A stretch of 64,000 bases of DNA. Origin: Escherichia coli (lineage in GTDB: Bacteria; Pseudomonadota; Gammaproteobacteria; Enterobacterales; Enterobacteriaceae). Below are positions 10,044 to 62,320 of this stretch, piece by piece. The position numbers and the translations under genes are program-made. The notes below the pieces were generated by a model. The model worked only from the letters and a program-made list of their open reading frames with translations, made no database searches and was not told the origin of the DNA. How positions within the stretch are numbered: position 1 is the stretch's first letter; each line of letters begins with the position of its first letter. The stretch lies in NCBI RefSeq assembly GCF_011045215.1, contig NZ_CP049201.1, one strand, 5' to 3'.

Positions 10044-10119
10044 GCCGATATAGCTCAGTTGGTAGAGCAGCGCATTCGTAATGCGAAGGTCGTAGGTTCG
10101 ACTCCTATTATCGGCACCA
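10044..10119 (+). tRNA. thrW: tRNA-Thr (anticodon CGT)
   Basis: 76 nt GCCGATATAGCTCAGTTGGTAGAGCAGCGCATTCGTAATGCG...TCGGCACCA with anticodon loop tCGTa. Confidence 0.9.
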
Positions 10120-10122
10120 TTT
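10074..10122. repeat. attL: 49-bp tRNA 3-prime segment, directly repeated at 50070-50118
   Basis: Exact 49-bp match ATTCGTAATGCGAAGGTCGTAGGTTCGACTCCTATTATCGGCACCATTT at both positions. Confidence 0.75.
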
Positions 10123-46367: not shown

Positions 46368-47850
<1,483 letters not shown>

Positions 47851-47993: not shown

Positions 47994-48570
47994 CTTTATC
48001 AATGACTTATCTCCCGACTTCCCGTCTTGCTTTTCCTAAACAGAACAATCGTAGAATATTCTTGAAGGGTTAGATCGTCACTGTTTTCTGTTCGATACTG
48101 TGACATTCAGCACTTGATTCGCTATGGATCTGACAGGAAGGTTTTGAGCGAAAATCTGCAGTTATTCAGTCGTTTTCTTATCGGTCACCATTATTCTTTT
48201 AGACATTGATCCTACAAAGCTGCCGCAAAGTTGGTGGTGGGAACTGAAGTTGCGTAGAGAAGGGGTCAATACCCGGAGGCAAACATGGGCTGGCAAAAGT
48301 GTAGCGGTATTAGGCGCAGCTATTTAGCCTAGTTATGTTTTATGAAAACTTGATATCATATAAGTGTCTTACTTATTGGCTGTAAATAAGTTTTTCTAAG
48401 GAATTGTTTCTTGAGTATCATTTGTAACTGTAACGGAATTTATAATCCTTTGCTTTATTGTTACGGTATTTTTATCACACCCTATTTTTAGTGGTTTTTA
48501 TACTGAAGTTTGGCAAAGTGAACTTTATATACATATACTTCATCCTGTTTCAGTTAAATTGGGTGGATGA

Positions 48571-49315
48571 TATGGCAACTACATGTTCAGTTATATTGAT
48601 TTTGGAGTCCTTTGATGTTTATTTCGGAAAAGAGAGTGTGTTTCTGGAGAGAGGTTCATCTGTACTTGTCGACTCTAGCTCTAGAGATTTTTTCCTGACA
48701 TATCCTGAAAGAGTGATAGTGGCGGATTTTGGCGCTGAGTTTATTAGTCGCTATTTGAAAGCTAATAACTTAAGGGATATTTCTGATTGTAGGGAATATC
48801 CATCTTATTTAAAAATAAACTTTGCTGACTTCAGTTTAATTAAAGGATTAATTAGTTGGGCTAATCACTGTGCTGAATACATAGAAATTTTTGATGAGTC
48901 TATTGCTTTTACATGTCTCTCTGCATTTTCTTCTGAAAAACAATTTGGAGTATTTCTGTTTGGATGTTTGAAAAGCACAGGGGCTAAAGTTAAAACGATT
49001 ATTCATACGGATTTATCTGCACCATGGCGTCTTAAGGATATATCATCAAGATTATATCTCAGCGAAAGTTTACTAAAGAGGAAATTGAAAGAAGAGGGGG
49101 TATCATTCAGTAAGATCATACTTGATGAGAGGATGCAAATGGCTGAATATTTACTCAGCACTCGTTGTTATCCTATTAGTAAAGTAGCTAAGGTCTGTGG
49201 TTATGCCAGTGTCTCATACTTTACTTATGTATTTAGACGTTATTTTGGTGTTTCTCCAAGTCAATACTCTCAGAGGAGTTCAGAAAGTAAAATTCTTACT
49301 CACCAGGGAATCTGA
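48571..49315 (+). CDS. AraC/XylS-family transcriptional regulator (Rns/AggR/AppY-like)
   Basis: C-terminal dual-HTH pattern WRLKDISSRLYLSESLLKRKLK...ILDERM...YFGVSP; AT-rich; start uncertain. Confidence 0.65.
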
Positions 49316-49356: not shown

Positions 49357-49722
49357 TTAAGTTAACGTTACCCGCTGACGTCGATATTCTCGCGGAGAGC
49401 GATAACCCAACGCACTGTGCGGATGGTTTTCATTGTAATGTTCGATCGCCACTGCAAGATTATGCAATGCCGTTCTTACATTCGGTTTCGGCATGAACGC
49501 GATGTAGTCTTCCTTCATCGTTTTCACGAACCTTTCTGCAATTCCATTACTCTGAGGACTGCTGATTGCCGTTGTGCAGGGCTCCAGATTCAACTCTCTG
49601 GCGAACTGCCGTGTTTCATGCGCTCTATACGCTGAACCGTTATCTGTCAGCCACTGGATGGACTGTTCCGGTACTTTATCGCCAAAGCGTTTTTCTATCG
49701 CTCCTAACATGACATCCTGCAC
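49357..49722 (-). pseudogene. IS3-family transposase, C-terminal fragment (IS2-like)
   Basis: rve integrase-core motif WLTDNGS...[16 protein letters not shown]; only the last ~120 aa present. Confidence 0.6.
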
Positions 49723-50069: not shown

Positions 50070-50118
50070 ATTCGTAATGCGAAGGTCGTAGGTTCGACTC
50101 CTATTATCGGCACCATTT
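50070..50118. repeat. attR of prophage / attL of downstream element: second copy of 49-bp tRNA-Thr 3-prime segment
   Basis: Exact repeat of 10074-10122. Confidence 0.75.
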
Positions 50119-50280
50119 CAACGTCTTTTCCCGTCTATTAAAATCCAAAAAACCCGCATATACTCTAGCTTTGAGCGCCCCCGATAGTGTTTTAACGTCT
50201 ATCAATATCTCCTAAAATCCACGTCTTTTGGGGGTATATTCGGGGGTATATGCTGTGTGGGCTACTGGAGATACCCCCAA

Positions 50281-51471
50281 ATGAAACTAAATGCCCGTCA
50301 GGTCGATACGGCCAAACCGAAAGAAAAACCCTATAAACTGGCCGATGGTGGTGGGCTTTATCTGCTTGTTAATCCCAATGGTTCCCGGTACTGGCGTTTA
50401 AAGTACCGGGTAGCCGGAAAAGAAAAGCTGTTGGCGCTGGGGGTATATCCCGATGTAACCCTGGCTGATGCCAGGGCGAAACGAGATGAGGCCAAAAGGG
50501 GTATGGCTGGGGGGATCGACCCGAACGAAGCGAAGCGGGAAGAAAAATTGAACCGCGAAGCGCAAATCAAAAACACCTTCGAAGAAATCGCCAGAGAGTG
50601 GCATACAGAACGGCAGAAGAAATGGTCTGAGGGGTACGCCTCGGACATTCTGGAAGCATTCAGTAAAGACATATTCCCTTGGATTGGAAAACGCCCCATC
50701 ACGGAAATAAAGCCCCTTGATTTGCTGAATACGCTTAAACGCATCGAGAATAGGGGAGCGACTGAAAAGGCCCGTAAGGTTCGCCAGTGGTGCGGGGAGG
50801 TCTGGAAGTATGCGATCGTTACCGCCCGCGCAGAATATAACCCCGCCCCTGATCTATCTGTGGCTATGGAAGGACACGAAGGGGAGCACTTCCCCCATCT
50901 GGAAGCCGAAGAGTTACCCGAATTTTTCCAGACGCTGGCGACGGCAAAAAGTAACGTTCAGGTTATTTTGGGGCTGCGTCTGCTTATTCTTGTGGGGTTA
51001 CGTCCGGTTGAATTACGCGCGGCCCCGTGGTCAGAGATTGATTTTGATAATGCCTTGTGGGAGATCCCCAAAGAGCGAATGAAGAAAAGACGTCCGCACG
51101 TTGTCCCGCTTTCTCGCCAGGCTATGGTTATTCTCGGGCAATTAAAAGAGTTGTCGGGCCGCAATCCTTTCATTTTTCCGGGCCGGAACGACCCGCGAAA
51201 GCCAATGAGTGAAGGAGCAATTAATCAGCTAATAAAGCGACTCGGGTATAAGGGCAAAGCTTGCGGGCATGGTTTCCGACATACCATGAGCACAATTTTG
51301 TATGAGAAAGGGTATAACACCGAATGGATCGAAACCCAGCTTGCACATGTTGATAAAAATACCATCCGTGGCACATATAATCATGCCCGCTATCTGGATG
51401 GACGCCGGGAAATGCTTCAATGGTATGCCGACTATATGGAATCGCTGGCGAGTGGCAGGGTAAAAGATTAG
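50281..51471 (+). CDS. P4-type integrase (tyrosine recombinase)
   Basis: N-terminal MKLNARQVDTAKPKEKPYKLADGGGLYL typical of P4-family integrases; catalytic HGFRHT... Confidence 0.85.
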   Translation: MKLNARQVDTAKPKEKPYKLADGGGLYLLVNPNGSRYWRLKYRVAGKEKLLALGVYPDVTLADARAKRDEAKRGMAGGIDPNEAKREEKLNREAQIKNTFEEIAREWHTERQKKWSEGYASDILEAFSKDIFPWIGKRPITEIKPLDLLNTLKRIENRGATEKARKVRQWCGEVWKYAIVTARAEYNPAPDLSVAMEGHEGEHFPHLEAEELPEFFQTLATAKSNVQVILGLRLLILVGLRPVELRAAPWSEIDFDNALWEIPKERMKKRRPHVVPLSRQAMVILGQLKELSGRNPFIFPGRNDPRKPMSEGAINQLIKRLGYKGKACGHGFRHTMSTILYEKGYNTEWIETQLAHVDKNTIRGTYNHARYLDGRREMLQWYADYMESLASGRVKD

Positions 51472-52020: not shown

Positions 52021-52260
52021 ATGTTAATAGCGGGTGTGAATATGAGAAATGATGCAATGCAGCTTTTAAACCAGGGAAAAAGATTGATCCGCCTGCCTGA
52101 AGTTATGATGCTTACGGGGCGGTGTCGCGCCAGTATTTATAAAGATATCAATGCAAATGTCTTTCCAAAGCCGATTAAAACCGGCCCGCGTTCTGTCGCA
52201 TGGGTTGAGGGTGAGATCAGCGACTGGATCGACAACAAAATCAAAGAGCGCAAAGTGTAA
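52021..52260 (+). CDS. AlpA-family transcriptional regulator
   Basis: RLIRLPEVMMLTGRCRASIYKDI...FPKPIK.GPRSVAWVEGEISDWI; start may be 52057. Confidence 0.7.
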   Translation: MLIAGVNMRNDAMQLLNQGKRLIRLPEVMMLTGRCRASIYKDINANVFPKPIKTGPRSVAWVEGEISDWIDNKIKERKV

Positions 52261-52459: not shown

Positions 52460-53332
52460 ATGAACATTACTGATATTATCAGCCATCGCGTATATCGTGA
52501 TGCGGATCTTGCTGTCATTAATAACACGGCATTTATTCAGCCTTATGACGGTTGTCACCGTGGGTTGTATGAAATGCGCGTTATTGAACTTTATCGCCTG
52601 AATAAAATGATGCACCTTACCCACGAATATAAATCTATTTCCGGGGAAAGCGTAGGCATTCCGGCGACTAAAGAGGAACTGTTTACACTGGTTAATAAAG
52701 GGCATGAACTTTGCCAGTCTGAACGGGAAAAGCTGGCGGCACTTGAAGCAGAATTGCAGCGTCTGCCAAGCCCGGCTGTAATTCCTGCGCCGCAGACGAT
52801 TAAAGAAGCACAGCAGGCCCGTAAATCACTAGAAGATGAAAGATACAGACTGCATCACGCAGCAATTAAAAATCAAGTCAAAGCACAGCAGGAAGAGTTA
52901 TCCATCAGACAAAACATTCTGGAATTGCTCGCGCCGGTTATTGATGTGTTGTTGGCCGTGGAAGATGTGGAACTGCTCGATCTGCGCCGTTCCCTGCCTA
53001 AGTCATCCCTCGATGCTAAGGCATTCAAAAAGGCGATTTCTGAAATTGAGTGTGCTGACCTTGCCTGGCAGAAAATGGATAAACTGGAGATTGCCCTTAA
53101 CAAGGTGGTGAACAACTGCACATATCGCCCGGAAGGAAGCATTAATCCCCGTTTTGTTAACCCTCTTAATGAAGATAAGCGGGAACGCGCCGAAATATCA
53201 CGCGATTATTACAGCTCTGAAATGGCCTTTATTCATACGGTGATGAGTGCAGATGAATATTTAAATTATATGTTGCCGATCCGTCACCAGCAGCGCGCGC
53301 AACGACTCACATTAGAAAGAAATATCAACTAA
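52460..53332 (+). CDS. Coiled-coil protein (possible scaffold or capsid-size factor)
   Basis: 290 aa with long predicted helical/coiled-coil central region; immediately upstream of capsid-like gene. Confidence 0.4.
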   Translation: MNITDIISHRVYRDADLAVINNTAFIQPYDGCHRGLYEMRVIELYRLNKMMHLTHEYKSISGESVGIPATKEELFTLVNKGHELCQSEREKLAALEAELQRLPSPAVIPAPQTIKEAQQARKSLEDERYRLHHAAIKNQVKAQQEELSIRQNILELLAPVIDVLLAVEDVELLDLRRSLPKSSLDAKAFKKAISEIECADLAWQKMDKLEIALNKVVNNCTYRPEGSINPRFVNPLNEDKRERAEISRDYYSSEMAFIHTVMSADEYLNYMLPIRHQQRAQRLTLERNIN

Positions 53333-53341
53333 GGAAGAATT

Positions 53342-54349
53342 ATGTCTTATGTAACACCAGATTATTTAACGCAGTATCACGAAAACCTGATTAAGTCTTT
53401 TAATATTAAATATAAAAACGAAGATACGGGGTATTTCACCATATCACAGCCGGAAAAAGCATCTCCGGATGCATGGGGATGTTCCACGCTTGATGTTAAA
53501 GGCTCGTCCTGGCTGATTGATAATATTTCATTACTGGACATTATCGGTGCGGATGGCACGACGATCACCATCGGTGATGGTTCCCTTTATACAGGCCGTG
53601 CAAAGGAAGGTCGCTTTCATAAGAAACTAAAAACCAACGGAACACCTTTTTTATTATCAGAAACGGATTCCTGCGCCTCATTGACTTATGAAGAAATGGC
53701 GGTAATGGCAAACGCGAAAAATTTCAGTAATGAAATGATCATTTTTTTCAAGAAGGCCGTGGTGCGGGATATGCTCCGTATTGGATTTAACGGCAAGATG
53801 ATTGCCGAAAATACCAACCCGGAACAATATAAAAACGGCGAAGATATCAATATTGGCTGGCACTCGCTGGCAAAAACATTCAATAACGGTTCACAAATTA
53901 TTTCTGATGCTTTCGCACTGGGGAAAGGCGGTGATTTTGCCGATGTTCACGATCTGGCTGATTGCCTCATCACGTCAAAAATCCCCGAAGGTCAGCGCGA
54001 AGATCCGGGCCTTGTGGTGATGGTTGGCGCGCAACTTGCCGCCCGCGAACGACTGAAACTGTTCAACATGGCCGATCAACCACTGACGCTGACGGCGGGG
54101 GATATGCTGACAAGCAGTGTCGCCGGTCGCTTTGCTTTTATCCCGCCGTTTATGCCGGGTAAGCGCCTGGCTGTTACGACGCTGAAAAATTTGCAGATCC
54201 TGACGCTGAAACACAGCCAACGCTACCGCGCGGAGGATATCCCGCAACGAGGTGTTTATGAGCATGGCTATTTACGTGAGGAAGGTTACGCGCTGGGGGA
54301 TGGCTATCTTTACGCGGCCAGCGATGAGAACGCCGTAACGCTGGTTTAA
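53342..54349 (+). CDS. P2 gpN-family major capsid-like protein
   Basis: Motifs GFNG, GKGGDFA and EDPGLVVMVGAQLAA resemble recalled P2 gpN; needs search confirmation. Confidence 0.5.
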   Translation: MSYVTPDYLTQYHENLIKSFNIKYKNEDTGYFTISQPEKASPDAWGCSTLDVKGSSWLIDNISLLDIIGADGTTITIGDGSLYTGRAKEGRFHKKLKTNGTPFLLSETDSCASLTYEEMAVMANAKNFSNEMIIFFKKAVVRDMLRIGFNGKMIAENTNPEQYKNGEDINIGWHSLAKTFNNGSQIISDAFALGKGGDFADVHDLADCLITSKIPEGQREDPGLVVMVGAQLAARERLKLFNMADQPLTLTAGDMLTSSVAGRFAFIPPFMPGKRLAVTTLKNLQILTLKHSQRYRAEDIPQRGVYEHGYLREEGYALGDGYLYAASDENAVTLV

Positions 54350-55164: not shown

Positions 55165-55405
55165 CCCACTGGACAACCGCAAAGCGGCGGCGCTTAACCC
55201 GTTCCACGATGACTGTTACGATCCGCCAGCCTTTATTAAACCGGGTTCAAAAGTAGTGGTTGAAATTGATTCCCGGGAAATGGAGGTCGCTATTCTAGCC
55301 GCTTATGACTACGGACTGGACGCGCTGAACGACGATGGCCGGGAAGAGCTTAACCGCTTAATTGCTGACCTGAAAGACAAGATAACGGAGGCGCGGTATG
55401 CATAA
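55157..55405 (+). CDS. Hypothetical small protein
   Basis: 82 aa with CAGGAGG RBS; C-terminal part of a longer ORF-track entry. Confidence 0.4.
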   Translation: MFNPLDNRKAAALNPFHDDCYDPPAFIKPGSKVVVEIDSREMEVAILAAYDYGLDALNDDGREELNRLIADLKDKITEARYA

Positions 55406-55823
55406 TCTGCTTAATTCACCGTTGCCAGTGTCTATGGATCTCTTTCAGGCTGGCGAGATGTGCGGGCATTTTGTCGCGCGGTTAACGGATGAAAGTTGTG
55501 TTGACGAGACTGAACGCGTCGCACTTTGCGGACGTCTGGCTTTTGCCCTGCGTTCTCTTTCATCTCTTTGTGATACAGACTATCCATCGCATATCCAGGC
55601 GCAATTAACCGCGACTGCTATTCCTGCTCCCTGCGTACCTGATGAGTGGATCGACGCGACGATCATGACGGGCTATTGCACCGCCTTAAATGATGCGCTG
55701 CTTAGTCGCTCCCTTCGTATGGACGTTGAAACACAATTACGCTGGCTTTTGCATGACATGATTAATTTACTTGTCAGATATCTGAAACAGCCTTGTATTA
55801 AGGCGGGAGTAGATCATGTCTGA
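55398..55823 (+). CDS. Hypothetical protein
   Basis: 141 aa ORF in operon string. Confidence 0.4.
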   Translation: MHNLLNSPLPVSMDLFQAGEMCGHFVARLTDESCVDETERVALCGRLAFALRSLSSLCDTDYPSHIQAQLTATAIPAPCVPDEWIDATIMTGYCTALNDALLSRSLRMDVETQLRWLLHDMINLLVRYLKQPCIKAGVDHV

Positions 55824-56214
55824 AATTATGCTCACACCGTTTCACGTTGACCGCCATTTTTACGATCTGGTTTACGGTGCTTCATTTTTTGCGGATGCAT
55901 TACCTGCAATGAATGATATCAAGCAGCAGCGGCTTTATTGTCGATTATTGCAATTAAATCTGGTTGTTTTATTTGAAAAACGGTCGCGGGATATTCCCCC
56001 AATTCAGTCGAGTAAAATAAAAATCGCTGATGAGGTTATATTTCTTAATGTCGATAATATTTATCATGCGCTTTCCCTGACTGCCGGGCTGATAAGTCAG
56101 GATATCAGTAAGGGGATGGAAAAAGAACTGGCTGAATATATCAGGGATATTATTAGTATTATTTTTAATGAAATGCGAATGCAGATGGTTGATTATGATC
56201 CATATGAAATGTGA
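55816..56214 (+). CDS. Hypothetical protein
   Basis: 132 aa ORF in operon string. Confidence 0.4.
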   Translation: MSEIMLTPFHVDRHFYDLVYGASFFADALPAMNDIKQQRLYCRLLQLNLVVLFEKRSRDIPPIQSSKIKIADEVIFLNVDNIYHALSLTAGLISQDISKGMEKELAEYIRDIISIIFNEMRMQMVDYDPYEM

Positions 56215-56613: not shown

Positions 56614-59376
56614 TTGTCTTACCCATTAATAAAGGTCATACCGATGCAAGGTAAAAAAGTTTCACAGACAGCAGGACGCGCGGCGGGCCAGTGGGAAAAT
56701 ATTCTTGAACACCTGGGGATTACTGTTCCTGCGGGTGGTCTTCATGGCCCCTGCCCGATCTGCGGCGGTAAAGATCGTTTTCGCTTTGATAATAAAAAAG
56801 GGCGTGGAACCTGGTTCTGCAACCAGTGCGGCCACGGTGACGGGCTGGATCTGGTCAAACTGGCGCTTTCGCTGGACACCGGGCCAGCCGCTGATCGAGT
56901 TGCTGAATTACTTCCGGCCCTTCCTCCGCCTGCGGTCATGCAGCCTGCCAGAAAAGAAGCCAGTGACGAAGGTCGCCCACATGACTACTGGCAACGCCTC
57001 TTTGCCCGTACTCAGCCGGGGGAAAGCCCTTACCTTACGGCGCGGGGGCTGACAGGTTTTGAACTGCCGCTGACCGTTCAGGAGATGAAAACCGCTGGCG
57101 GTGTTTTTCCGGCTGGTTCGCTTTTATTACCGATCACGGACACCGAAGGACGGATGACCGGTGCACAGCTTATCGGCCCGGACAAGGTAAAAGGCTTATG
57201 TGCTGGCACCAGGAAAAAAGGGCGTTTTATCTCTGTCGGGCCGTTCCCGGAGAAAATGCCCGCGCGGATCATTATCTCGGAAGGCTTTGCCACTGCGTTA
57301 AGCGCATCCCTGCTTTCAGAGGGCTGGAGTATTGCGGCGCTGGATAAAGGCAACCTGAAAGACGTTGCGGAGCAAATCCGCCAGAAATGGCCGGACGTGC
57401 AGATCGTTATTGCCGGTGATAATGACTTTTCTGACGGTAAACCCAATCAGGGGAAAGAGTCTGCGATCAAAGCTGCACTGGCCGTTAAGGGATGGATGAC
57501 CATTCCTCCCGGACGGATCAAAGTTGACTGGGATGATTACCGCCGTGAATTTGGCCTCCAGCGCGCCCGTGACGCATTCGCGGAAGAACTGCTTAACCCG
57601 GCAGACACCGAAACGCGTTTACCGCATGGTTTCCGCCTGACGAAGGATTATCTTTGGTTTGATCGCCCGCTCAGTGACGGTAGCGAAAGCGGCCAGACTC
57701 GCCAGGTGAAGATATGTAGCCCGCTCAAAGTGACGGCCATCACCAGCGACGGCGAAGGCGGTAAATTCGGGCGTCTGCTTGAGTGGGAAGACTCCAGCGG
57801 ATTACGGCATGAATGGGCGATGCCAATGACAGTGCTTGCCGGAAGCGGTCAGGAGCTGCGGGAGGTTCTGCTTGATAACGGAATGCACTTTATCAGCGTG
57901 AACGGCGCGGCGCGTAGCTATCTGATGGAATACATTTCTAACTGTCGCCCGGTTCGCCGCGTCACCTGCGTTGAAAAAACAGGCTGGTTTAGCGGTGCGT
58001 ATGTTCTCCAGGATGAGGTGATCGGCAGCGATGCCGGATCGGTCATCCTCCAGTCTGCTATGTCGTCTAAAAATGACTTCCGGGTGAGCGGAACGGTGGC
58101 GGAATGGGCGCAACACGTCGGGCGCTATTGTGCCGGAAATTCCCGCCTGGTGTTCTGCGTCAGTCTGGCGCTGGCCGCGCCGTTACTGAATATTATTGGT
58201 GTTGGCGGCGGCGGTTATCACCTTAAGGGCGAATCCACGGACGGCAAGACAACCACAATGAAGGTAGCGGCGTCTGTCTGCGGCGGGCCTGATTTCTGGA
58301 AAACGTGGCGGGCAACCGGAAACGCGCTGGAAGGTATTGCGCTACGCCGTAATGATGCCGCCCTGATGCTGGATGAAATCAGCGAAGTTGACGGCAGAGA
58401 GGCTAGCCGGATCGCCTATATGCTGGGGAACGGGCAGGGCAAAGCAAGGGGGCGCGTTGATGGCAGCGTCCGCGATCCGGTGACCTGGACATTGCTTTAC
58501 CTGTCCACCGGGGAAATCTCTATTGCGGAACATGCCGCCGAAGCCGGAGAAAAGCGAACCGGCGCGGGTGTCGGTGTGCGTATGGTGCAAATCCCCAGCG
58601 ATACCGGAAAACATGGCGCTTTCGAAAATCTCCACGGCATGGAAGGCGGTAAAGCGTTTGCGGAATACCTTGAACAGACCTGTAAACAATATTACGGCGC
58701 GCCGTTCCGCGAATGGTTGCGCTGGCTGGCGGCAAATCTGACGGAAACCGCGAACCGGGCGCGGGCAATGAAAAAAGAGTATGAACGGACATTATTACCC
58801 GAAGATTCCGGCAAGCAGGTTGGGCGCATTGTGGATCGCTTTGCACTGTTGGCCGTTGCGGGGGAACTGGCGAGTGAAGCGGGGATCACAGGCTGGCAAC
58901 CAGGAGAAGCGTATAACGCTGCAAGAAGCTGTCTGGCGGCATGGCTTAACGATCGTGGACATGCGGCCAACCAGGAAGAAGCCGACGCGCTGGAGAAGGT
59001 GCGGCGCTTTATTACGGCCAATCAGTACACACGCTTTGCTGACTGGTATGACGAGAAAAACCGCCCGTCAAATATGGTTGGCTTTCGCCGGGTGGAGAAA
59101 GGCGGGAACGGTATTGGCATGAGCAAAAAGGAGAACAGCGGCGATACTGTTAAAGACGGGGACGCCACTAAAGAGCCGGAAACCACATTTTATATCCTGC
59201 CCAGCGGATGGAAGGAAATTTGCGGGACGTCGGACAGCGTTAAAACGGCGAGACTATGCGACGAGGCTGGATGGCTTGTAAAGGATGAAGATCGCCAGCG
59301 CCTACAACGTACAGTAAGACTACCGGAAATTGGCTTAAAGAAAGTGTATGTGTTCAGCGGCGAAGTGATCGGATAA
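56614..59376 (+). CDS. P4 alpha-like primase-helicase
   Basis: Zinc-binding CPICGG...CNQCGHGDG, TOPRIM-like IISEGFATA...AGDND, P-loop GESTDGKTT. Confidence 0.8.
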   Translation: MSYPLIKVIPMQGKKVSQTAGRAAGQWENILEHLGITVPAGGLHGPCPICGGKDRFRFDNKKGRGTWFCNQCGHGDGLDLVKLALSLDTGPAADRVAELLPALPPPAVMQPARKEASDEGRPHDYWQRLFARTQPGESPYLTARGLTGFELPLTVQEMKTAGGVFPAGSLLLPITDTEGRMTGAQLIGPDKVKGLCAGTRKKGRFISVGPFPEKMPARIIISEGFATALSASLLSEGWSIAALDKGNLKDVAEQIRQKWPDVQIVIAGDNDFSDGKPNQGKESAIKAALAVKGWMTIPPGRIKVDWDDYRREFGLQRARDAFAEELLNPADTETRLPHGFRLTKDYLWFDRPLSDGSESGQTRQVKICSPLKVTAITSDGEGGKFGRLLEWEDSSGLRHEWAMPMTVLAGSGQELREVLLDNGMHFISVNGAARSYLMEYISNCRPVRRVTCVEKTGWFSGAYVLQDEVIGSDAGSVILQSAMSSKNDFRVSGTVAEWAQHVGRYCAGNSRLVFCVSLALAAPLLNIIGVGGGGYHLKGESTDGKTTTMKVAASVCGGPDFWKTWRATGNALEGIALRRNDAALMLDEISEVDGREASRIAYMLGNGQGKARGRVDGSVRDPVTWTLLYLSTGEISIAEHAAEAGEKRTGAGVGVRMVQIPSDTGKHGAFENLHGMEGGKAFAEYLEQTCKQYYGAPFREWLRWLAANLTETANRARAMKKEYERTLLPEDSGKQVGRIVDRFALLAVAGELASEAGITGWQPGEAYNAARSCLAAWLNDRGHAANQEEADALEKVRRFITANQYTRFADWYDEKNRPSNMVGFRRVEKGGNGIGMSKKENSGDTVKDGDATKEPETTFYILPSGWKEICGTSDSVKTARLCDEAGWLVKDEDRQRLQRTVRLPEIGLKKVYVFSGEVIG

Positions 59377-59469: not shown

Positions 59470-59690
59470 TTTTAGTGGAAACAGTGGGAACATAGGGAAC
59501 AGACTTGATTTATAAAGGTTTTATTTGTTCCCAATTACTGTTCCCATATGGTAACAGGTGGTAATGTATTTTAAATCATATGGTTATGTTGATATGCAAA
59601 GCGTTGTTCCCAGTTGTAAAAGAGAGATGGGAACAGGAAAAAGGTATAAATATCAACACTGTTACCATTGTTCCCACTGTTTCCACCATT
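59470..59690. repeat. Iteron cluster (TGTTCCCA / TGGGAACA), crr/ori-like
   Basis: At least 9 copies in both orientations directly downstream of primase. Confidence 0.6.
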
Positions 59691-59724
59691 TTTGACAATA
59701 ACAATATTTAATTTCGGGGAAAAT

Positions 59725-59741
59725 GCTTTTCCCTGGCTGGC
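59725..59741. repeat. 17-bp direct repeat GCTTTTCCCTGGCTGGC (copy 1)
   Basis: Perfect match to 62005-62021. Confidence 0.6.
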
Positions 59742-59760
59742 TAACATCAAAGGTAAAGAA

Positions 59761-60726
59761 ATGAGCATTAAGAAACGTCCTGATGGAAAATGGCTGGTAG
59801 ATATGCGGCCCGCAGGTCGTAAAGGAAAACGTATTCGCAGGGTTTTTAACAGGAAATCGGAGGCCCTGGCATTTGAGATGTATTACCTGGTCCGTTCTCA
59901 ATCGCCGGAATGGGCAACGAACTTCACAGACCGCAGATTATTAAGCGATTTGCGTAAAACATGGTGGGACCTGTTTGGACACGCCAGAAATAACGCAGAA
60001 ACTGAAAAGCGCCAGCTTGATAAAACCATCCGGCAGATGGGAGATCCACCAGTTAACCGGCTTACAATCCGCTTCATTCTGGAATTCAGAGCAGGCCGTG
60101 TTTCAGGGAAATTAAAGGCATCCACGATAAATCGCGATATGTACCGGTTATCAGGCATGTTTACCGAATTAATTAAAGCAGGTGAGTGTAAAAATAATCC
60201 GTTCCGTAGTCTTGAACCGTTAAAGGAAGAACCTTCCGCAGTAACGTTTCTGACCCACGAAGAAATTAGCATGTTACTGGAAAAACTGGAGGGAGATTCG
60301 CGTAAGCTGGCGTTACTGTGTCTTAATACTGGGGCGCGTTTCAGTGAAGCCGCGAATCTAACGGCTGAAATGGTTAACAACCGTCGTGTAACGTTTATTA
60401 AGACAAAGAACGGGAAGCAGCGGACAATACCCATTTCATCTGAACTCGAAAAGGAAATAAAAACAAAAAATTCAGGTCAACTTTTCACGGTGGATTATAA
60501 ATGGTTTTCCCGCAGGTTGAAGGCAATCAAACCGGATTTACCGGATGGACAGGCAACGCATGTATTACGACATACTTTCGCCAGTCATTTCATTATGAAT
60601 GGGGGAAATATTGTTGTATTAAAAGAGATTCTTGGACATGCCAATATTCAGCAAACTATGATTTATGCACACTTTGCGCCTGAATTTCTGGCGCAGGCTG
60701 TAACATTGAATCCATTTAGTAAGTAA
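59761..60726 (+). CDS. Tyrosine integrase (second integrase of the region)
   Basis: N-terminal MSIKKRPDGKWLVD arm-binding-like region; C-terminal HVLRHTFASH... Confidence 0.8.
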   Translation: MSIKKRPDGKWLVDMRPAGRKGKRIRRVFNRKSEALAFEMYYLVRSQSPEWATNFTDRRLLSDLRKTWWDLFGHARNNAETEKRQLDKTIRQMGDPPVNRLTIRFILEFRAGRVSGKLKASTINRDMYRLSGMFTELIKAGECKNNPFRSLEPLKEEPSAVTFLTHEEISMLLEKLEGDSRKLALLCLNTGARFSEAANLTAEMVNNRRVTFIKTKNGKQRTIPISSELEKEIKTKNSGQLFTVDYKWFSRRLKAIKPDLPDGQATHVLRHTFASHFIMNGGNIVVLKEILGHANIQQTMIYAHFAPEFLAQAVTLNPFSK

Positions 60727-60754: not shown

Positions 60755-61012
60755 CTAACGTTGAAGTAATTCTTTCATGACCGTTTTTTGTTCCGGCGTC
60801 ATCATGTCAATCATTGTTTTTACTGCTTTATCCCCAGTCAGAGCGCTGGGGCTTAGCGTATGGGAGAACGTCATATTCATAACGAAGGTATGCCCACATT
60901 CAACATTATTACAGGCACAATACATATCAGACAGGTGGGGATGCTTGCGCACTGTCTTTTTTGTTGTTGAATTACTTCCACACTCAGGACAAACAATTTT
61001 ATGGCTGCGCAT
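60755..61012 (-). CDS. Ogr/Delta-family zinc-finger late-gene activator-like protein
   Basis: CPEC...CACNNVEC zinc-finger spacing resembling P2 Ogr; start uncertain. Confidence 0.5.
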   Translation of the reverse strand: MRSHKIVCPECGSNSTTKKTVRKHPHLSDMYCACNNVECGHTFVMNMTFSHTLSPSALTGDKAVKTMIDMMTPEQKTVMKELLQR

Positions 61013-61432
61013 AATAATCACCACTCGTAAAAGGCGCATTATTATACCACTATTTGCATTAAACAAAAAAAAGAAATTGATATAAATTATCAATAATATC
61101 ATCGTGTTATGTCATTCCATTCTTTCTTTGCTTTTAACTTAGTGTCACGCAATTTGATTTTTTTTGTTTTAATTTTCATATGGTTACGTTATTTTGATTA
61201 AAGATTGAATTTTACGATGACTGTAATTATTGAAATCCTTTTCAACTGATTGCATTTTTTTCAGTCTCAAATTTCATGTAAAACCCCGTTTAACGCCTGT
61301 TCTGGCGCTTCTTTCCTGCAATTTTCCAAACTGAAAAAATTCTCACTACGTAAACACCGTGGGCGTGCGGGTGAGCGCGGTTTTGGTCCCGCTGGCGTTT
61401 GCGTCGTAACAAGTCAGAAACATACAACCACA

Positions 61433-61741: not shown

Positions 61742-62001
61742 TGAAAGTCAGGATATCCCCGCAGGCAAAAGGCGATCTTCAGTACTGGGCTGAGAATGAC
61801 CCAAAGACGTATAACAAGGTAATGGAGCTAATCAAATCGGCTAAGGAAAGCCCCTTCAAGGGGATAGGGAAGCCGGAGGCGCTAAAGCATCGTAAGCCGC
61901 TTTGGTCACGTCGAATCACGAAAGAACATCGCCTGGTGTATTACGTTGAGCAAGGCGATCTGTACATTGTTGCGTGTCGCTATCACTACACCACGATTTA
62001 A
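61741..62001 (+). CDS. YoeB/Txe-family toxin (mRNA interferase)
   Basis: KGKPE.LKH...WSRRIT.EHRLVY...ACRYHY motif. Confidence 0.75.
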   Translation: MKVRISPQAKGDLQYWAENDPKTYNKVMELIKSAKESPFKGIGKPEALKHRKPLWSRRITKEHRLVYYVEQGDLYIVACRYHYTTI

Positions 62002-62004
62002 ACA

Positions 62005-62021
62005 GCTTTTCCCTGGCTGGC
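62005..62021. repeat. 17-bp direct repeat GCTTTTCCCTGGCTGGC (copy 2)
   Basis: Perfect match to 59725-59741. Confidence 0.6.
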
Positions 62022-62320
62022 GGGTTTACCTTAACTTTGCCAGCACTGTTTAAACGCCCGCCGCTCTCTCCCAAATACAGTATAAAAAGCAATCAATTAT
62101 TGTGGACGTAAAAGCGCATGGGGGTACAATTGGGGGTACGTTGGTTATCCATTATGTAATAAATTCATAATAAACATGGTGTTATATTGCATGTTTAACT
62201 CTTATTATCTACCCCATATTCAAATACACCACGTTTCCTCCTGTGCCGTATTTATGCCATTGTAACCCTGGCAATTAATCAAAATACTGTTCTGACATCA
62301 GGCAATGCAGGTGCAGACAT

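Follow-up and report, generated by a model that had tools for sequence, protein, structure and literature searches.

The satellite capsid gene and its partner

The DNA analyzed here is a stretch of 64,000 nucleotides (nt) of the Escherichia coli contig NZ_CP049201.1 (assembly GCF_011045215.1), referred to as the window. Towards its right end it contains a P4-like phage satellite. The subject of this study is a pair of adjacent genes within this satellite, one for a homolog of a phage major capsid protein and the other, directly upstream, for an all-helical partner protein. A first-pass annotation, made from the letters of the window alone, had noticed two open reading frames (ORFs) of 290 and 335 aa in this place, and both were found again:

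52460-53332 (+): satellite-specific all-alpha partner protein, 290 aa, according to an AlphaFold2 model; no family match
53342-54349 (+): major capsid protein homolog of the P2 gpN family, satellite-specific clade, 335 aa; PF05125, PHROG 70, TIGR01551 and 7jw1_A

The two ORFs are separated by 9 nt; the 335-aa ORF is preceded by a Shine-Dalgarno sequence, AGGAAG, that overlaps with the stop codon of the 290-aa ORF. They form one operon.

The resemblance of the 335-aa protein to gpN of phage P2, which had been proposed from three motifs, was borne out by profile comparisons. The protein matched the Pfam family Phage_cap_P2 (PF05125) over model positions 3-324 of 327 (E 1.2e-54), PHROG 70 'major head protein' over positions 3-337 of 345 (E 3.7e-72) and the solved gpN chain 7jw1_A (P2/P4, P4 procapsid; E 1e-12), as well as 7oz4_A. 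The motifs GFNG and GKGGDFA and the third motif were present and aligned with GFNG, GKGGDYA and EDPDLVVIVGRQLLA of P2 gpN. TIGR01551 was matched with an E value of 5e-46 at 157.3 bits, below the curated equivalog cut-off of 219.65; judged by these profiles the protein is therefore a gpN homolog and not a certified equivalog. An HK97 fold is predicted for it from sequence homology. The homology in itself is not new, since the NCBI annotation pipeline (PGAP) already names the gene 'P2 family phage major capsid protein' in the near-identical locus L001.

While the family assignment was correct, a close relationship to P2 itself was not found. The identity to P2 gpN was 22-24%, compared with 40-45% to the capsid proteins of ESSI-2-type Peduoviridae. 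These nearest phage relatives comprise Cronobacter phage ESSI-2, the Escherichia phages ESSI2_ev015, ev040, ev129 and ev239, Yersinia phage vB_YenM_324 and one E. coli prophage. In the alignment, the satellite protein was collinear with the phage capsid proteins over its full length, with no large insertions or deletions and no loss of a domain. The F↓(S/T) context at the cleavage position of P2 gpN, after residue 31, was aligned and kept in the satellite capsid protein.

The gene of the 290-aa protein occupies the position that gpO holds in phages, directly upstream of the capsid gene. Its AlphaFold2 model, based on an alignment of 17 positional homologs, was all helical with helices of up to 42 residues (predicted local distance difference test, pLDDT, 84; predicted template modelling score, pTM, 0.77). 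The protein had no match in Pfam, NCBIfam, PHROG or PADLOC, a hidden Markov model search of the PDB sequences with the family had none either, and a Foldseek comparison of the model with PDB and BFVD gave nothing at E<0.001. BLASTP against gpO, Sid and Psu found nothing significant (gpO at E 0.04), and the probabilities given by hhalign for the family against the same three proteins were below 1% (gpO 0.2%). Thus gpO, Sid and Psu were ruled out as identities of the 290-aa protein by sequence, profile and fold comparisons, and the pair does not represent the ordinary Sid/Psu/Delta set of P4, the outcome that had been named as speaking against the first-pass annotation. We propose instead that the satellite capsid protein is aided by the 290-aa protein, which would act in assembly, as a scaffold or in size determination.

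The partner family is small. A profile search of 1.84e9 representative proteins returned only 58 representatives, almost all of 273-308 aa, with no evident domain fusion and a single longer member of 385 aa that carries an N-terminal extension. The homologs from the loci surveyed below were 15-23% identical to the 290-aa protein and aligned with it end to end. For the three most distant members, which were checked individually, the partner gene was directly followed by a Phage_cap_P2 gene; the elements were small and carried an integrase, and in two of the three a primase was present too.

Satellite backbone, cos-like block and likely helper lineage

The element had been described as P4-like, with the gene pair between alpA and a repressor region. 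Both statements agree with our results, since BLASTP linked the integrase, the Vis, epsilon and alpha proteins to those of P4, and alpA was located upstream of the pair while YlcI/YnfO, Icd-like and cI-like genes followed downstream. Besides the pair and a packaging region described below, the satellite comprises:

50257-51471 (+): P4-type tyrosine integrase, 44% identical to P4 Int over 407 aa (E 6e-116); PHROG 1
52021-52260 (+): AlpA/Vis-family regulator-excisionase, 39% identical to P4 ORF88/Vis (E 6e-15); PHROG 2790; 'AlpA family' according to PGAP in L001
54562-54849 (-): YlcI/YnfO-family gene, divergent, at the start of the regulatory region; NF041551 (E 6e-13) and PGAP in L001
54961-55164 (+): Icd-like gene, homolog of the P4 cI-kil region; NF033153 phage_ICD_like (E 7e-19), PHROG 1743 'transcriptional repressor'
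55398-56214 (+): two overlapping hypothetical genes (141 and 132 aa) of the early operon; no family match, conserved in L001
56311-56580 (+): epsilon-like helper derepression protein, 45% identical to P4 epsilon (E 4e-19); 'Derepression protein' according to PGAP
56614-59376 (+): alpha-type primase-helicase of 920 aa (Zn ribbon, Toprim, DUF927); PHROG 1139 over the full length (E 3.5e-167)
59668-60726 (+): second tyrosine integrase, P2-phage type, with 68-80% nucleotide identity to integrases of P2-like Salmonella, Yersinia and Escherichia phages
60755-61102 (-): Ogr/Delta-family zinc-finger late-gene activator; PHROG 603 (E 7e-32), 'ogr/Delta-like zinc finger' according to PGAP in near-identical loci; the coordinates are those of the longest ORF, and PGAP calls an 85-aa product for the counterpart in L001
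61496-62001 (+): Phd/YefM-YoeB toxin-antitoxin pair, cargo at the right end of the satellite; PGAP on identical genes in L001 and L002

The alpha primase was 37% identical to P4 alpha over 322 aa in BLASTP (E 4e-48). The second integrase belongs to the variable cargo outside the capsid module, and other genes take its place in L001. No homologs of Sid or Psu were found among the proteins of the window (E<0.01) or the ORFs of the screened satellite loci (E<1e-4). The window satellite has no portal, protease or terminase genes either, and in particular no portal, terminase, gpM or head-tail connector genes were found near its capsid gene. True phages of the sister clade, by contrast, do have a head cluster of the portal/TerL/gpO/gpN/gpM type. 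Judged by its gene content, the element is a phage satellite with a P4-type backbone that lacks sid and psu. Of the P4-like core used by SatelliteFinder (int, alpA, epsilon/ash, alpha, delta, sid and psu) all components except sid and psu were present, and the module of capsid and partner has taken the place of these two. The alpA gene is located just upstream of this module. The capsid operon of most related loci starts with alpA, 5-50 nt ahead of the partner gene.

The satellite extends from position 50119 to about 62.0-62.3 kb and is therefore about 12 kb in size. A prophage of about 40 kb precedes it in a tandem arrangement behind the tRNA gene thrW, tRNA-Thr(cgt), at 10044-10119, and the two elements are separated by a copy of the 3' end of this gene:

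50070-50118 (no strand): att junction of prophage and satellite, copy of the thrW 3' end, 49 bp, exact repeat of 10074-10122

A third copy to the right of the satellite was not recognisable in 62001-62320, and the window contains only these two. The right junction of the satellite may be degraded or very short.

The 19-nt cos sequence of P2 and P4 was absent from the window satellite even when three mismatches were allowed. In most of the satellites, however, the Ogr gene is closely followed on its 3' side by some 200 nt of non-coding DNA that match, and are collinear with, the right end of the record of phage ESSI2_ev015. This record ends with CCGCAGGCGGGTGC and starts with a Nextera adapter followed by GTAGCGCCGTTTTTGTC, and the satellites read through both halves. 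An nhmmer profile made from phage ev015 and ten satellites, none of them of the window type, had a single above-threshold match in the 64 kb of the window:

61229-61406 (+): cos-like packaging region with AACTGAAAAA-type repeats and a GC-rich core; nhmmer E 3e-11

Among 50,697 phage records, the cos block of another satellite matched only ESSI-2, ev015, ev040, ev129, YenM_324 and S.Kent 1-2-1, and the match reached the end of the record in ESSI-2 and ev015. A BLASTN comparison of non-coding satellite DNA with partial phage loci had given coding matches only; the link came with the complete phage record. From these similarities, the window block is considered homologous to the genome terminus of ESSI-2-type peduoviruses and is termed cos-like.

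The phages that share the cos block are also those with the closest capsid, Ogr and gpO N-domain proteins. The Ogr regulator of the window was 45-52% identical to Ogr of ESSI-2-type prophages; it is of the single-domain Ogr type and had no BLASTP match to P4 Delta. Because of the shared cos region and the missing 19-nt cos sequence of P2, we regard ESSI-2-type Peduoviridae, with genomes of 28.8-30.9 kb, and not P2 as the likely helper lineage. All eight ESSI-2-type loci that were compared (L031, L032, L033, L003, L010, L024, L025 and L029) have an inverted repeat, TCGG-N13/14-CCGA, some 100-130 nt before the gpO gene, within the promoter region from which the terminase and gpO genes diverge. 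This repeat, which differs from the TGT-N12-ACA of P2, probably serves as the Ogr site of these phages.

Positions 1-48 of the RefSeq record of ESSI2_ev015 (L040, NC_049395.1) consist of the Nextera adapter (TCGTCGGCAGCGTCAGATGTGTATAAGAGACAG), a contamination at the apparent physical end of the genome.

Conservation of the cassette in Enterobacterales

A scan of one genome per species resulted in 20 loci, which were classified by BLASTP. Seventeen of them had the same order of genes, namely alpA/vis, a partner of about 285 aa, a capsid homolog of about 333 aa, an ASH/cI-like gene, the alpha primase and Ogr/Delta, with the integrase at one end or the other. The hosts were Pectobacterium, Erwinia, Buttiauxella, Intestinirhabdus, Citrobacter, Pantoea, Atlantibacter, Franconibacter, Kosakonia, Phytobacter, Siccibacter and two metagenome-assembled genomes (MAGs). 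In all 17 intact satellite loci the partner gene was located directly 5' of a Phage_cap_P2 gene. The remaining three loci were true peduoviruses, having genes for portal, TerL, gpO, capsid and TerS. The survey of related elements that the first-pass annotation had suggested thus revealed a family and no one-off arrangement.

Some of the satellites (in Pectobacterium, Pantoea, a MAG and the locus L035) additionally encode a protein of 169-176 aa that corresponds to the N-terminal domain of gpO alone (GPO_N). It keeps the D, H and S motifs, lacks the entire C-terminal scaffolding half of gpO and is closest to the gpO N-domains of ESSI-2-type phages. Since these relatives keep the protease domain of gpO on its own and a separate helical protein is encoded before the capsid gene, a scaffolding or size-determining role is suggested for the partner.

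When neighbour-joining trees were rooted on P2 gpN, the capsid proteins of the satellites were monophyletic in 200 of 200 bootstraps, and in 194 of 200 when distant metagenomic elements were added. The clade branches beside or within the ESSI-2-type phages. This monophyly points to one ancient capture of the capsid gene. In comparisons of the window with two close relatives, the ratio of nonsynonymous to synonymous substitution rates (dN/dS) was 0.10-0.17 for the capsid gene, 0.14-0.24 for the partner gene and 0.11 for alpha. Both genes of the pair are under purifying selection. Given the same order in 17 independent species-level loci and dN/dS values of 0.10-0.24, the pair is not a product of chance. 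It is an old, obligate cassette of a satellite family that is conserved across Enterobacterales.

These data contradict the view of the pair as an inert remnant, left over from the head cluster of a degraded P2-like prophage that recombined into a P4-like island, and now with no function. The label of PGAP, which names the gene merely as a phage capsid protein, and occasional broken copies (L026 with a split capsid gene, L018 with a split GPO_N gene) would fit such a remnant. Against it stand the order and lengths of the genes, kept in the 17 loci and more than 10 genera, together with the low dN/dS and the single satellite clade, and no flanking remnants of portal, terminase or gpM genes were found. 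We consider this view effectively refuted.

The anatomy of the locus also bears on a decoy function, which the first-pass annotation had offered beside a capsid/scaffold module. Capsid homolog and partner would then mainly poison or titrate the head assembly of the helper, protecting the host population or biasing packaging, and would be dispensable for the particles of the satellite. Such interference is common among satellites, P4-like elements are rich in anti-phage cargo (PMC9122126), and the window element keeps other cargo in the form of the toxin-antitoxin pair and the second integrase. A decoy, however, would have no need of a full-length capsid protein whose domains and putative maturation-site context (by comparison with P2 gpN) are all kept across many genera, nor of a recruited protease domain. 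Moreover, the module is located in the core operon after alpA, outside the variable cargo hotspots, and the PADLOC scan, which covered the partner and not the capsid protein, found no defence family. We therefore consider a decoy improbable, and the anatomy would favour the capsid/scaffold module.

Elements of the window type are rare and were found in 2-3 of 5426 complete E. coli genomes. A sister variant with the same module of partner and capsid was present in about 447 of these genomes (~8%), and prophages of the L010 type, the candidate helper lineage, in only 42.

The sister satellite (for example L034, NZ_AP018784.2 1504754-1515127) is integrated beside a tRNA-Arg gene, with dsdC and yfdC on either side, and carries the gene pair sce7725/sce7726 as cargo. 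Further cargo genes were seen in other capsid-carrying elements. These were a retron Ec48-type reverse transcriptase with its effector in a Pectobacterium satellite (L005, 9539-11436) and genes for YjiT and a YjiV-like helicase in a metagenomic element (L038, 5074-10182).

Proposed head assembly and comparison with known satellites

The reading that we favour, with some reserve, is that the pair represents a head-assembly module which yields satellite-sized shells on the portal, protease, terminase, connectors and tail of the helper. Infection by an ESSI-2-type helper, or its induction, would lead the satellite to excise and to replicate via alpha. The capsid genes, just downstream of alpA and in most relatives within its operon, would then be expressed. 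The satellite capsid protein, alone or mixed with that of the helper, would form a small shell, probably with a triangulation number (T) of 4, and the 290-aa protein would serve as its assembly or size-determining partner. The shell would be built on the helper portal and matured by the gpO protease of the helper, which would be needed because the window satellite has no protease gene. Finally, the helper terminase would fill the shell from the cos of the satellite, and head-completion proteins and tail of the helper would finish the particle.

A T=4 shell has about 0.43 of the volume of a T=7 shell and would hold 12-13 kb for a helper of 29-31 kb, which fits the 12-kb element; this estimate assumes a T=7 capsid for the helper, and the assumption is the first of several points that weigh against the proposed assembly. 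The 290-aa protein resembles no known scaffold, and its predicted shape is fairly compact and not that of a clearly elongated scaffold. When partner and capsid protein were modelled as a fused chain from a paired 12-row alignment, the scores were low (pLDDT 56, pTM 0.43), with the capsid part below 50. No candidate helper is located inside the 64-kb window, and the cos block of the window itself, a diverged variant, had no phage match in BLASTN. The TCGG-N13/14-CCGA dyad was found upstream of alpA or the partner gene in no satellite. In the window element, L001 and L002, the roughly 900 nt that precede the partner gene contain no strict TGT-N12-ACA, though this pattern also misses the PO site of P2 itself; the few matches in other satellites had no consistent position. 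Since the promoter dyad is absent upstream of the satellite module, control of the module by helper-type late transcription is not evident. Finally, EcCICFT073, the one phage-inducible chromosomal island (PICI) of Gram-negative bacteria tested so far, could interfere with its helper without the capsid gene c1499, and this gene is cited as not needed for transfer either (PMC6092414, PMC10111431). A capsid homolog of a satellite therefore need not be essential.

The makeup of the shell could also differ from this proposal. Small amounts of the satellite capsid homolog might enter a shell of the helper capsid protein, at pentamer positions for example, and so force it to be small, much like Ccm of the Staphylococcus aureus pathogenicity island (SaPI) SaPIbov5 or CpmA/CpmB of other SaPIs, while the 290-aa protein assists or removes the helper scaffold. 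A satellite-encoded homolog of a helper capsid protein is exactly the situation of Ccm (10.1101/2022.09.08.507074, PMC6893505). The window protein is collinear with, and 40-45% identical to, the capsid proteins of one phage lineage, as co-assembly requires, and the element lacks protease, portal and terminase genes of its own. At this identity, on the other hand, the interfaces of the subunits are perhaps too diverged for mixed lattices, and a partner in the gpO position together with the protease-only gpO of relatives look like a self-sufficient procapsid kit. We rate such redirection as rather unlikely, though a more serious alternative than the decoy.

The proposed module combines features of several known systems. 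With P4 the element shares a homologous backbone (int 44%, AlpA/Vis 39%, epsilon 45%, alpha 37%, the Icd/cI-like region and an activator of the Ogr/Delta family), a size of about 12 kb, integration at a tRNA gene and a cos-type packaging site, here cos-like by sequence. It differs in that its own capsid gene and an unrelated partner stand in place of sid and psu, in a regulator of the single-domain type with no BLASTP similarity to Delta, and in a cos-like block and nearest phage relatives that point to ESSI-2-type Peduoviridae and not to P2. The gpO-gpN pair of P2 is paralleled by the proposed assembly factor directly 5' of the capsid gene, by the F↓(S/T) context at the cleavage position of gpN and by the gpO protease domain of the relatives. 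However, the upstream protein of the window has no detectable similarity to gpO, and the satellites place protease and scaffold on separate genes or, as in the window element, have no protease, with no portal, terminase or gpM nearby.

Like SaPIbov5 with its Ccm, the window element is a small satellite with a cos-type packaging region and a paralog, of predicted HK97 fold, of the capsid protein of its likely helper lineage, and small capsids would be expected. The capsid family (here P2 gpN), the host phylum and the satellite backbone are different; furthermore, satellites of the window type have an obligate second gene and sometimes a protease. Among the Gram-negative PICIs, a capsid gene is present in 21 of 29 reference elements (PMC10111431). 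With c1499/c1500 of EcCICFT073, the similarity lies in a small alpA-led island of one direction, where a capsid homolog of the helper family is found beside a second head-related gene (PMC6092414, PMC10111431). Those islands, in contrast, carry capsid proteins of the lambda gpE family with decoration proteins and have lambdoid helpers, whereas the gpN family, a new partner family and a P4-like backbone are found here; EcCICFT073 is moreover packaged in full-size heads, its capsid gene being dispensable.

Capsid-forming PICIs (cf-PICIs) such as EcCIEDL933 likewise have their own capsid protein, and their capsid genes as well as those described here form a clade apart from the phage homologs. 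The cf-PICIs encode a full set for head and packaging, i.e. portal, protease, head-tail adaptor and connector, TerS and TerL (PMC10085698), whereas the window element has capsid and partner only, to which some relatives add a protease domain. As only capsid and partner are encoded, portal, terminase and connectors would have to come from the helper. Taken together, the mode of action of the element would be closest to a hybrid of P4 (for backbone, size and cos packaging) and the satellites with capsid homologs (SaPIbov5, Gram-negative PICIs and cf-PICIs).

A more far-reaching form of the proposal, which we put forward tentatively and hold to be less probable than the general one, is that of 'half capsid-forming' P4-type satellites. 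Their shell would consist wholly of their own gpN-family protein, with the 290-aa protein as a novel scaffold and, in some, a protease of their own, and only portal, terminase, connectors and tail would be taken from ESSI-2-type peduoviruses. Such satellites would be intermediate between those that remodel capsids (P4, SaPI) and cf-PICIs, and would have arisen once and spread across Enterobacterales.

P4 is the textbook satellite, which has no capsid gene and reshapes the capsid of its helper with Sid. In the open-access text of two reference surveys, a 2026 hotspot preprint and keyword-searched literature, neither a gpN-family capsid gene nor the 290-aa partner family was described for P4-type satellites. 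The elements found here represent a sizeable sister group with the same backbone for replication and regulation, another solution for the head and, probably, another branch of Peduoviridae as target. Since sid and psu serve as core markers in the current definitions of P4-like satellites, and roughly 8% of the complete E. coli genomes contain the sibling variant, it is likely that many elements of this kind pass for incomplete P4-likes or are recorded as stray 'phage capsid' genes. If the proposed assembly is true, it would provide a compact two-gene system that steers an HK97-fold protein to a smaller T number, a new family of scaffold-like proteins, a step in the evolution towards fully capsid-forming satellites and, via the shared cos site, a testable assignment of the helper.

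The prophage next to the satellite had been described as having an HK97-type capsid and a Mu-like tail. This is in agreement with the annotation of a 98% identical prophage elsewhere, which lists an HK97-type protease and capsid, a Mu-like contractile tail and the invertase pinE. At the right end of the prophage, adjoining pinE, two adjacent ORFs at 46868-47805 (-) correspond to the anti-phage defence gene PD-T4-3 (PADLOC PDLC04031). The ORF of 139 aa covers profile positions 1-121 and that of 171 aa positions 123-244; the gene is frameshifted or in two parts. Between the tail-fibre/invertase end of the prophage and the att copy, an AraC-like regulator ORF (48458-49315) and a fragment of an IS3-family transposase (49357-49722, -) were identified from their translations.

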